A stretch of DNA of 64,000 nucleotides. Source: a virus (Duplodnaviria; Heunggongvirae; Uroviricota; Caudoviricetes). Position numbers and translations under genes: made by a program. The notes under the pieces were generated by a model that was given only the letters and a program-made list of their open reading frames with translations, ran no database searches and was not told where the DNA came from. Below, in pieces: positions 24,352 to 24,781 of this stretch. The DNA lies in the IMG/VR virus record IMGVR_UViG_2740892427_000001; one strand, given 5' to 3'. How positions within the stretch are numbered: the first letter of the stretch is position 1; each line of letters begins with the position of its first letter.

Positions 24352-24781
24352 CGCGAAACAGCATGTCGGCCATTTGCGAGGATTTGACGTAGCACTTTGC
24401 CATCATCGGCTGACTAGGGTTTGATGCGATCATGTCGGACACCAGCATTGACCCATAGCCTTTTCCGCGAAGCTCTTTGACAATACTGACGGCACGGAGT
24501 TCAAGTCAAGGTGCGCCAGTCGGATCGAGTGCGGCACAGAACCAGATTAGTCCTACTTTTTGTCATCAGAACGATGCAGCAGGATGTAGATAAAATGCCC
24601 GGAGTATTGGCCCCGCTCGTTCGTCTTGATTGCCAGTCTGGTCTGCTGCTCAAAGGTTTTACCCCCCCTTTGATGTGAGGATCTCTTCGTAGAAGTGACC
24701 TTTGCGTGCGCCGTCCTCGAACTCAGCCATGATAAAAGGCATGTCTGTCACAGTTGCTGCCCTTGAATAAAATTCACTCAT
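24352..24781 (-). pseudogene. degraded GNAT-family acetyltransferase (fragments in three frames)
   Basis: fragments MSEFYSRAATVTDMPFIMAEFEDGARKGHFYEEIL and VSIVKELRGKGYGSMLVSDM (R-x-x-G-x-G motif) in different frames; frame break at C7 run 24662-24668. Confidence 0.4.

Follow-up and report, generated by a model that had tools for sequence, protein, structure and literature searches.

The 64,000-nucleotide stretch of DNA analysed here (the window) contains the remnant of a GNAT N-acetyltransferase gene close to an IncFIB-type replicon (Table 1). The original prediction had placed this remnant next to the replication origin, a fair description, although one 214-aa gene lies between the remnant and the iterons. 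It had also ended the remnant at 24352; the original TAA stop is found at 24341-24343 instead. The source gene was 495 bp long (164 aa) and is the ortholog of SSU5_071, WP_001288958, and WP_138657007. The length of the remnant adds up: 495 + 1 - 1 - 54 gives 441 bp, which is the interval 24341-24781. When the remnant is conceptually repaired, its translation is 95% identical to an intact Salmonella protein (P0001). The region around the remnant matches ~110-kb non-mobilizable IncFIB plasmids of E. coli (CP088541.1, KP792123.1, and CP057251.1) at 100%, and its identity to phage-plasmids of the SSU5/pHCM2/pMT1 group is lower.

The N-terminal end of the gene survives as a 40-codon open reading frame whose start codon and AGGA ribosome-binding site (24789-24792) are unbroken. 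Gene callers report its product in 547 contigs (734 sample blocks). Both peptides that had been quoted as GNAT-like fragments are encoded on the minus strand. The resemblance to GNAT proteins is genuine, though weak in sequence, and the predicted fold of an intact ortholog supports it strongly. In a three-frame translation, the segment ELRGKGYGSMLVSDM (part of LELRAVSIVKELRGKGYGSMLVSDMIASNPSQPMMAKCYVKSSQMADMLFRDPK, which ends in a stop) lies downstream of MSEFYSRAATVTDMPFIMAEFEDGARKGHFYEEILTSKGG in the same minus-strand frame. The middle part of the remnant, (G)KTFEQQTRLAIKTNERGQYSGHFIYILLHRSDDKK, sits in a second frame. In other words, the frame order along the remnant is 1, then 2, then 1 again.

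Table 1. Coordinates of the GNAT remnant, its lesions, and the neighbouring features in the window
Feature	Position	Strand	Remarks
SbcC-like ATPase	20348-22264	minus	
SbcD-like metallophosphoesterase	22494-23675	minus	
Lipoprotein-like gene	23806-24309	plus	167 aa; lipobox LIGC (...IALIGC); phrog_18989; convergent with the GNAT gene
Terminator-like hairpin with T-run	24316-24341	plus	separates the GNAT remnant from the convergent lipoprotein-like gene
GNAT N-acetyltransferase gene remnant	24341-24781	minus	441 bp; aligned to intact orthologs, ~91-93% nt identity
54-bp in-frame deletion junction	24360-24365	minus	5-bp ATGCT microhomology at the flanks; residues ~141-158 (LKRRGFHLFDTSPKGTQM) gone, 18 codons
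GNAT motif A remnant, R-G-K-G-Y-G	24452-24469	minus	acetyl-CoA pyrophosphate-binding loop (Q/R-x-x-G-x-G/A); read from 24469 to 24452
Nonsense codon, TGA for CGA (Arg92)	24506-24508	minus	original frame; in 17/17 decayed copies examined
A-run, A5 (A6 in intact genes)	24557-24561	minus	-1 frameshift; returns the G7 allele to the original frame
Residual 40-codon ORF	24659-24781	minus	N-terminal GNAT fragment; reads MSEFYSRAATVTDMPFIMAEFEDGARKGHFYEEILTSKGG and a stop, from 24781 to 24659
Poly-G tract, G7 (C7 on the plus strand)	24662-24668	minus	+1 relative to G6 (or GGGTGG) in intact genes
214-aa backbone gene, intact	24857-25501	minus	directly upstream of the remnant, same strand, 75-bp gap
Two iteron clusters, IncFIB-type replicon	~25590-25800 and ~26080-26200 (25590-26200)		21-bp spacing; upstream of repA
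repA	26244-27299	plus	Rep3_N/Rep3_C

The SbcC-like ATPase (AAA_23/SMC_N) also scores against the PADLOC models of LmuB (Lamassu) with an E-value of 4.5e-23, which is probably due to a generic SMC/Rad50 similarity and not to a defence system. A separate and intact GNAT gene of 173 aa is located at 58937-59458 on the plus strand (Pfam Acetyltransf_7, 33.6 bits; Acetyltransf_1, 33.0 bits), and a 126-aa ORF with no Pfam hit (59458-59838, plus strand) begins inside its stop codon. This second GNAT is unrelated to the decayed one except for motif A, and with it in the window the earlier description of the remnant as a lost second acetyltransferase is apt; the intact gene is presumably the first one that this description implied. 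A glutaredoxin-like ORF is found at 47091-47300 on the minus strand (Pfam Glutaredoxin, 5e-11), and the 214-aa ORF at 7264-7908 on the minus strand looks like an RNase H from its sequence. RNase H-like and glutaredoxin-like ORFs are typical cargo of phage-plasmids. The latter 214-aa ORF and a 164-aa ORF at 6624-7118 are equal in length to the neighbour gene and the GNAT gene, respectively, and were considered as their paralogs; they are unrelated to them by translation and by tblastn.

Four lesions in the remnant

What separates the remnant from a functional gene? The original prediction had proposed a comparison with intact orthologs in relatives, and the intact 164-aa genes indeed reveal four lesions. 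These lesions were seen when the window and three near-identical E. coli plasmids were aligned with three intact genes, and they were rechecked with a pattern search over 15 loci and an alignment numbered by codons. With two frameshifts, one nonsense codon, and one deletion, the window copy is unable to encode a complete GNAT domain. Every decayed copy in the 15-locus check carried a G7, G8, or G9 tract together with A5, TGA, and the deletion. In the intact copies, the tract was G6 or interrupted, the A-run was A6, the codon was CGA wherever the pattern found it, and the deletion was absent.

After the G7 tract the shifted frame runs at once into a TAA (24659-24661). The two frameshifts, +1 at the G-run and -1 at the A-run, cancel each other, and therefore two frames suffice to read the remnant. 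The claim that GNAT-like fragments lie in three frames around a break at the C7 run thus stands as far as the run at 24662-24668 is a real break point, whereas the fragments occupy two frames and are separated from an intact gene by four lesions. In the G6 and G9 alleles, the A5 run instead leads to a TAG stop right after ...SDDKK. The C7 run by itself is no more than expected by chance, because the window contains one G/C homopolymer of at least 7 nt while 2.2 are expected; its significance derives from the comparison with the orthologs.

The 54-bp deletion was confirmed in 17 copies, against 731 contigs that were counted for tract length (see below). Of the 44 columns that are invariant in the family, 10 fall within the 18 deleted residues (M140, L141, K142, R143, R144, G145, F146, P153, G155, and Q157). 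The deletion takes out the most conserved block of this GNAT family, M-L-K-R-R-G-F...P.G.Q. In the AlphaFold model of an intact ortholog, the deleted residues reach from the end of helix 4 through strand 6 into the start of strand 7. As a result, part of the GNAT core would be missing even if the frameshifts and the stop were repaired.

The predicted fold of the intact protein and of its neighbour

The assignment of the source gene to the GNAT proteins rests mainly on predicted structure and motif A, because its Pfam score is at the threshold. The intact ortholog scores 20.7 bits against Acetyltransf_1 (PF00583, clan CL0257), which is exactly the gathering cut-off of 20.7 and hence borderline. 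An alignment to GNAT profiles had been proposed for the fragments, and the conceptually repaired window protein reaches 21.5 bits against the same cut-off. Matches were also obtained to two phage families annotated as 'acetyltransferase' (phrog_15387, E 1.9e-108; phrog_1249, 2.8e-6). A search of NCBIfam returned a sub-threshold hit only, to amino-acid N-acetyltransferase, and the best match of the family profile among PDB sequences was to NAA50 with an E-value of 0.016. Motif A is present in the family, as the columns G106-K107-G108-x-G110 are invariant in a 14-sequence alignment.

An AlphaFold model of the intact ortholog P0001, built with this 14-sequence alignment, has a pLDDT of 92.5. Its elements follow the order b1-a1-a2-b2-b3-b4-a3-b5-a4-b6-b7, which is the canonical GNAT order. 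A Foldseek search of the model against the PDB gave 554 matches at E<=0.001; the best 50 are all acetyltransferases, several of them labelled 'putative acetyltransferases', and nearly all of them are named as GNAT-family proteins. RimI/RimL, SpeG, NAA50/NAA60, and phosphinothricin acetyltransferase agree with the model in the order of their strands and helices and in the motif A loop. Small single-domain GNAT structures match it with Foldseek E-values of 3e-8 to 1e-6 and TM scores of 0.6-0.73, although sequence identity to these structures is only 8-20% and no subfamily stands out. The predicted GNAT fold of the source gene product can thus be considered secure. Because no GNAT subfamily stands out among the fold matches, a substrate is not assignable. 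Judging by fold and motif A, the intact protein is presumably an acetyl-CoA-dependent N-acetyltransferase that acts on an amine of a small molecule or a protein. A literature search for SSU5 together with acetyltransferase found nothing on function.

The 214-aa protein encoded upstream of the remnant has no Pfam hit and matches phrog_2105. The core of its AlphaFold model (residues ~65-175; pLDDT 74-91) has ASCH domains as top Foldseek hits, among them ZmASCH and YqfB, an N4-acetylcytidine amidohydrolase of E. coli (TMt 0.70-0.77 for YqfB). The label 'ASCH RNA-binding domain' in the Cyrano record agrees with this predicted core. The N-terminal ~60 residues, which are poorly modelled, contain four invariant cysteines (C31, C34, C40, and C61). 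Every family plasmid examined has the 214-aa gene, whether or not it carries the GNAT gene.

Distribution of intact and decayed alleles

A total of 246 PLSDB records match the remnant. Seven of them match at >=99% and all seven are from E. coli. Approximately 173 records match near full length at ~88-93% nt identity and are annotated as a 164-aa 'GNAT family N-acetyltransferase'; no PLSDB record falls in the band of 95-99% nt identity to the remnant. In PLSDB, the intact gene occurs on plasmids of Enterobacter, Salmonella (including pHCM2 of Typhi), Citrobacter, and Klebsiella; E. coli and E. albertii contribute a small number of IncK2/Z or IncI-gamma/K1 plasmids. Phage SSU5 has the intact gene as SSU5_071. 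The family is small, with 27 clusters at 90% identity, and its named members are all from Enterobacterales. Among the representatives of these clusters, the closest intact protein shares 95% identity with the repaired product, and a closer member may sit inside a cluster.

The intact copies on IncK2/Z and IncI-gamma/K1 plasmids, again near the replicon, indicate that the GNAT gene has moved between unrelated plasmid backbones. In the E. coli IncK2/Z plasmid p6156-2 (locus 1727-3325), an intact GNAT gene of ~89% identity lies beside a serine acetyltransferase gene. This GNAT gene is located ~1.2 kb from an IncFII-type repA, and the IncI-gamma/K1 plasmids are alike in both copy and setting. On IncK2/Z plasmids, the 214-aa gene does not accompany it.

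SSU5/pHCM2/pMT1-type phage-plasmids have a hot spot for cargo genes between sbcD and the ASCH-like/repA region, a slot whose GNAT gene may be intact, decayed, scrapped and replaced by another gene, or missing altogether. The lipoprotein-like gene accompanies the GNAT gene as part of this variable cargo. In complete E. coli genomes, the 701-bp locus is matched in 160 out of 5,426, always on a plasmid. Three of these 160 carry the decayed allele, about a dozen carry an intact gene at ~89-92%, and in ~145 the match is limited to 34 bp within the 214-aa gene. In the Cyrano phage-plasmid and p09EL50, the distance from the SbcD gene to the 214-aa gene is 254 bp, and no trace of the GNAT gene (blastn, word size 7) or of the lipoprotein gene was detected in the slot. 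The Enterobacter plasmids have the GNAT gene and lack the lipoprotein gene. In p1107-111K, an IS91-family element stands in place of the 5' part of the lipoprotein gene.

Plasmid pMT1 of Y. pestis CO92 retains a ~70-bp scrap of the 5' part of the GNAT gene, in which codons 1-13 are joined to a piece of about codons 47-58 (locus ~2500-2570). Its slot is filled by a gene for an ABC-transporter substrate-binding protein, and its PLSDB match to the remnant is 48 bp only. The scrap is an independent loss of the GNAT gene. Other lineages contain sporadic frameshifted or internally deleted alleles. The GNAT gene is thus an exchangeable accessory that was lost several times by different routes.

When did the decay in the window lineage occur? 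The dN/dS ratio (Nei-Gojobori) between the repaired window allele and intact alleles of the SSU5 group is 0.10-0.12, and it is 0.05-0.12 among the intact alleles themselves. A ratio of ~0.1 suggests that most of the ~8% divergence arose under purifying selection and that inactivation was recent relative to it. On the basis of these sequence comparisons, the decay appears to be recent. Fifteen carriers show no variation in the remnant or the lipoprotein gene, and the adjacent 214-aa gene has at least three haplotypes. In the 3' half of the 214-aa gene (window 24890-25200), the differences among carriers are spaced in multiples of three, and the segment from 23900 to 24781 is invariant. This pattern suggests a recombination boundary just to the right of the GNAT remnant.

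A probably recent pseudogene and its alternatives

The tract length of the decayed allele varies among public assemblies. Exact look-up of the predicted products in a collection of 15 billion proteins gave 2 contigs with G5, 16 with G6, 547 with G7, 148 with G8, 14 with G9, and 4 with G10, 731 in total; since these counts depend on gene callers reporting ORFs of 40-41 aa, G7 and G10 may be under-counted. No G11 product was found in this collection. G8 thus accounts for about one fifth of the contigs. Seven complete plasmids carry the decayed allele, with G7 in CP088541, KP792123, and CP057251, G8 in pAMPD01, pLR-48_2, and p1107-111K, and G9 in pRHB23-C03_2. These plasmids come from different laboratories, and A5, TGA, and the deletion are common to all seven. 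Ten further independent contigs, which originate from draft genomes at NCBI, Logan assemblies, metagenomes at ENA, and one JGI metagenome, are identical to the remnant at 441 of 441 positions, including all four lesions. An exact-pattern scan for the deletion junction in IMG/VR and JGI metagenome contigs had zero matches, which says little because the allele-bearing JGI metagenome contig surfaced in the protein look-up.

The most straightforward explanation is that 24341-24781 is almost certainly a true and recently inactivated pseudogene of a dispensable accessory GNAT gene of SSU5/pHCM2-type IncFIB phage-plasmids. It shows clear orthology to intact genes and carries disabling lesions that are repeated across independent sequences. 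The original prediction had named a true pseudogene as the first of two alternatives, and this one is borne out, as A5, TGA, and the 54-bp deletion remain after the tract is corrected to G6. The lesions would have arisen as independent events, namely a +1 slippage in G6, a -1 slippage in A6, a CGA to TGA change, and a microhomology-mediated deletion of 54 bp. Such an allele would produce at most a 40-residue N-terminal peptide and no acetyltransferase. Once selection was lifted, the poly-G tract would have gone on slipping, giving rise to the G5-G10 variants among isolates.

The other alternative was an intact gene whose ORF is broken by base-calling errors at the C7 run. The tract does differ among near-identical plasmid records (G7, G8, and G9), which is the typical look of homopolymer errors. 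However, resetting the tract to G6 leaves three lesions in place, and the G6 version that exists in 16 contigs stops after 75 codons. Its product ends after ...SDDKK, indicating that A5 is present even with the 'correct' tract. In silico, tract lengths of 5-11 yield products of 40-94 codons only and none near 164; the G8 product, for example, ends in ...RTLT and contains the mutated codon-92 region. Since no tract length restores the ORF and the four lesions recur in 17 independently assembled copies, ten of them identical to the remnant, a homopolymer artefact is excluded as the explanation, and the intact-gene reading has next to no chance of being correct. The variation in tract length itself is probably biological, with some contribution of sequencing or assembly possible; G8 and G9 occur on different haplotypes of the neighbouring gene. 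The same distribution over haplotypes suggests recurrent slippage, and together with the G5-G10 spectrum over 731 contigs and the G6 tract already present in functional alleles it would be expected of a phase-variable contingency gene that is switched ON and OFF by slipped-strand mispairing. Such a switch is extremely improbable here, as no tract length gives a full ORF in this allele and some intact genes have interrupted, non-slipping tracts (GGGTGG in pHCM2 and Citrobacter; GGTTGG or TGTTGG in IncK-type plasmids). Furthermore, the sole frameshifted allele among the partial proteins read from other lineages breaks outside the tract. A milder form of the slippage idea is that intact G6 alleles (SSU5, Salmonella, and Enterobacter) are slippage-prone and stochastically off in sub-populations, the E. 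coli allele being a stuck switch. This idea is a long shot, and so it is when taken jointly with a second one, in which the GNAT and the ASCH-like protein would form an acetylation/deacetylation pair acting on a nucleic acid or on an origin-side replication factor. The pair idea is weakened by the occurrence of the GNAT gene without the ASCH-like gene on IncK2/Z plasmids and by the fact that most E. coli relatives have the ASCH-like gene but no GNAT gene.

Could the remnant have been kept for a function of its own, as a small protein of 40 aa (or 76/93 aa) or as a cis element such as a spacer or terminator separating the ASCH-like gene from the convergent lipoprotein gene, or an ori-proximal sequence? 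The unbroken start codon and ribosome-binding site would fit this reading, as would the full identity of the remnant in ten contigs while the adjacent gene varies. However, the invariance extends to the lipoprotein gene, which fits a recent common descent of the module, and the whole segment is absent from most E. coli relatives. Other tract lengths yield quite different peptides, and the remnant has no Rfam match. Retention for function is accordingly very unlikely. Likewise, there is very little to recommend a former toxin-antitoxin role, in which the gene would have encoded an AtaT/TacT/KacT-like GNAT toxin and decayed once the antitoxin had been lost, a reading akin to the lost toxin of the original prediction. 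The size of 164 aa and the site beside a plasmid replicon recall plasmid toxins, and AtaT (6ajm_B) comes 25th in the list of fold matches (TMq 0.58). In contrast, matches of the RimI/RimL/SpeG/NAA50 type are as good or better, and the GNAT has no PADLOC hit. Five contexts (the window, SSU5, Salmonella, Enterobacter, and IncK2/Z) have no adjacent small gene of the RHH/DUF1778 type or other antitoxin-like partner. The upstream gene encodes the ASCH-like backbone protein, which persists without the GNAT gene. The lost-toxin claim is thus not upheld, and a recent pseudogene of an accessory acetyltransferase gene is the preferred reading.

The remnant is an ordinary pseudogene in which nothing but the drift of the poly-G tract is even mildly notable, and its decayed allele is widespread, in at least 731 public contigs. 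It is unannotated in the RefSeq and GenBank records inspected, in which it appears as an 'empty' gap of 548 bp. This gap could be annotated as a multi-lesion GNAT pseudogene, although that matters little beyond annotation. The drift from G5 to G10 after selection was lifted would be a small natural example of its type, and it might be used to mark lineages or to benchmark homopolymer calling. The finding opens no long-standing question.

Among known systems, the closest counterparts are the GNAT genes of SSU5 (SSU5_071) and pHCM2 (WP_001288958 and WP_138657007; PHROG 15387). They occupy the same slot, in the order sbcD, (lipoprotein), GNAT, 214-aa gene, iterons, and repA, and they are 84-93% identical to the window copy in nucleotide sequence. 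The window copy differs from them by a +1 and a -1 frameshift, a nonsense codon, and the 54-bp deletion, which leave it unable to encode the enzyme. The toxins AtaT, TacT, KacT, and ItaT share the GNAT fold, have a similar size, and are plasmid-borne near the replicon; unlike them, the GNAT gene has no adjacent antitoxin gene in any relative, and its product has no preferential structural similarity to these toxins. Homopolymer contingency genes are alike in having a poly-G tract within the 5' third of the coding region and a length polymorphism among isolates. They differ from the decayed gene in that no ON tract length exists here because of the three further lesions downstream, and the slippage in this case would be neutral drift in a dead gene.
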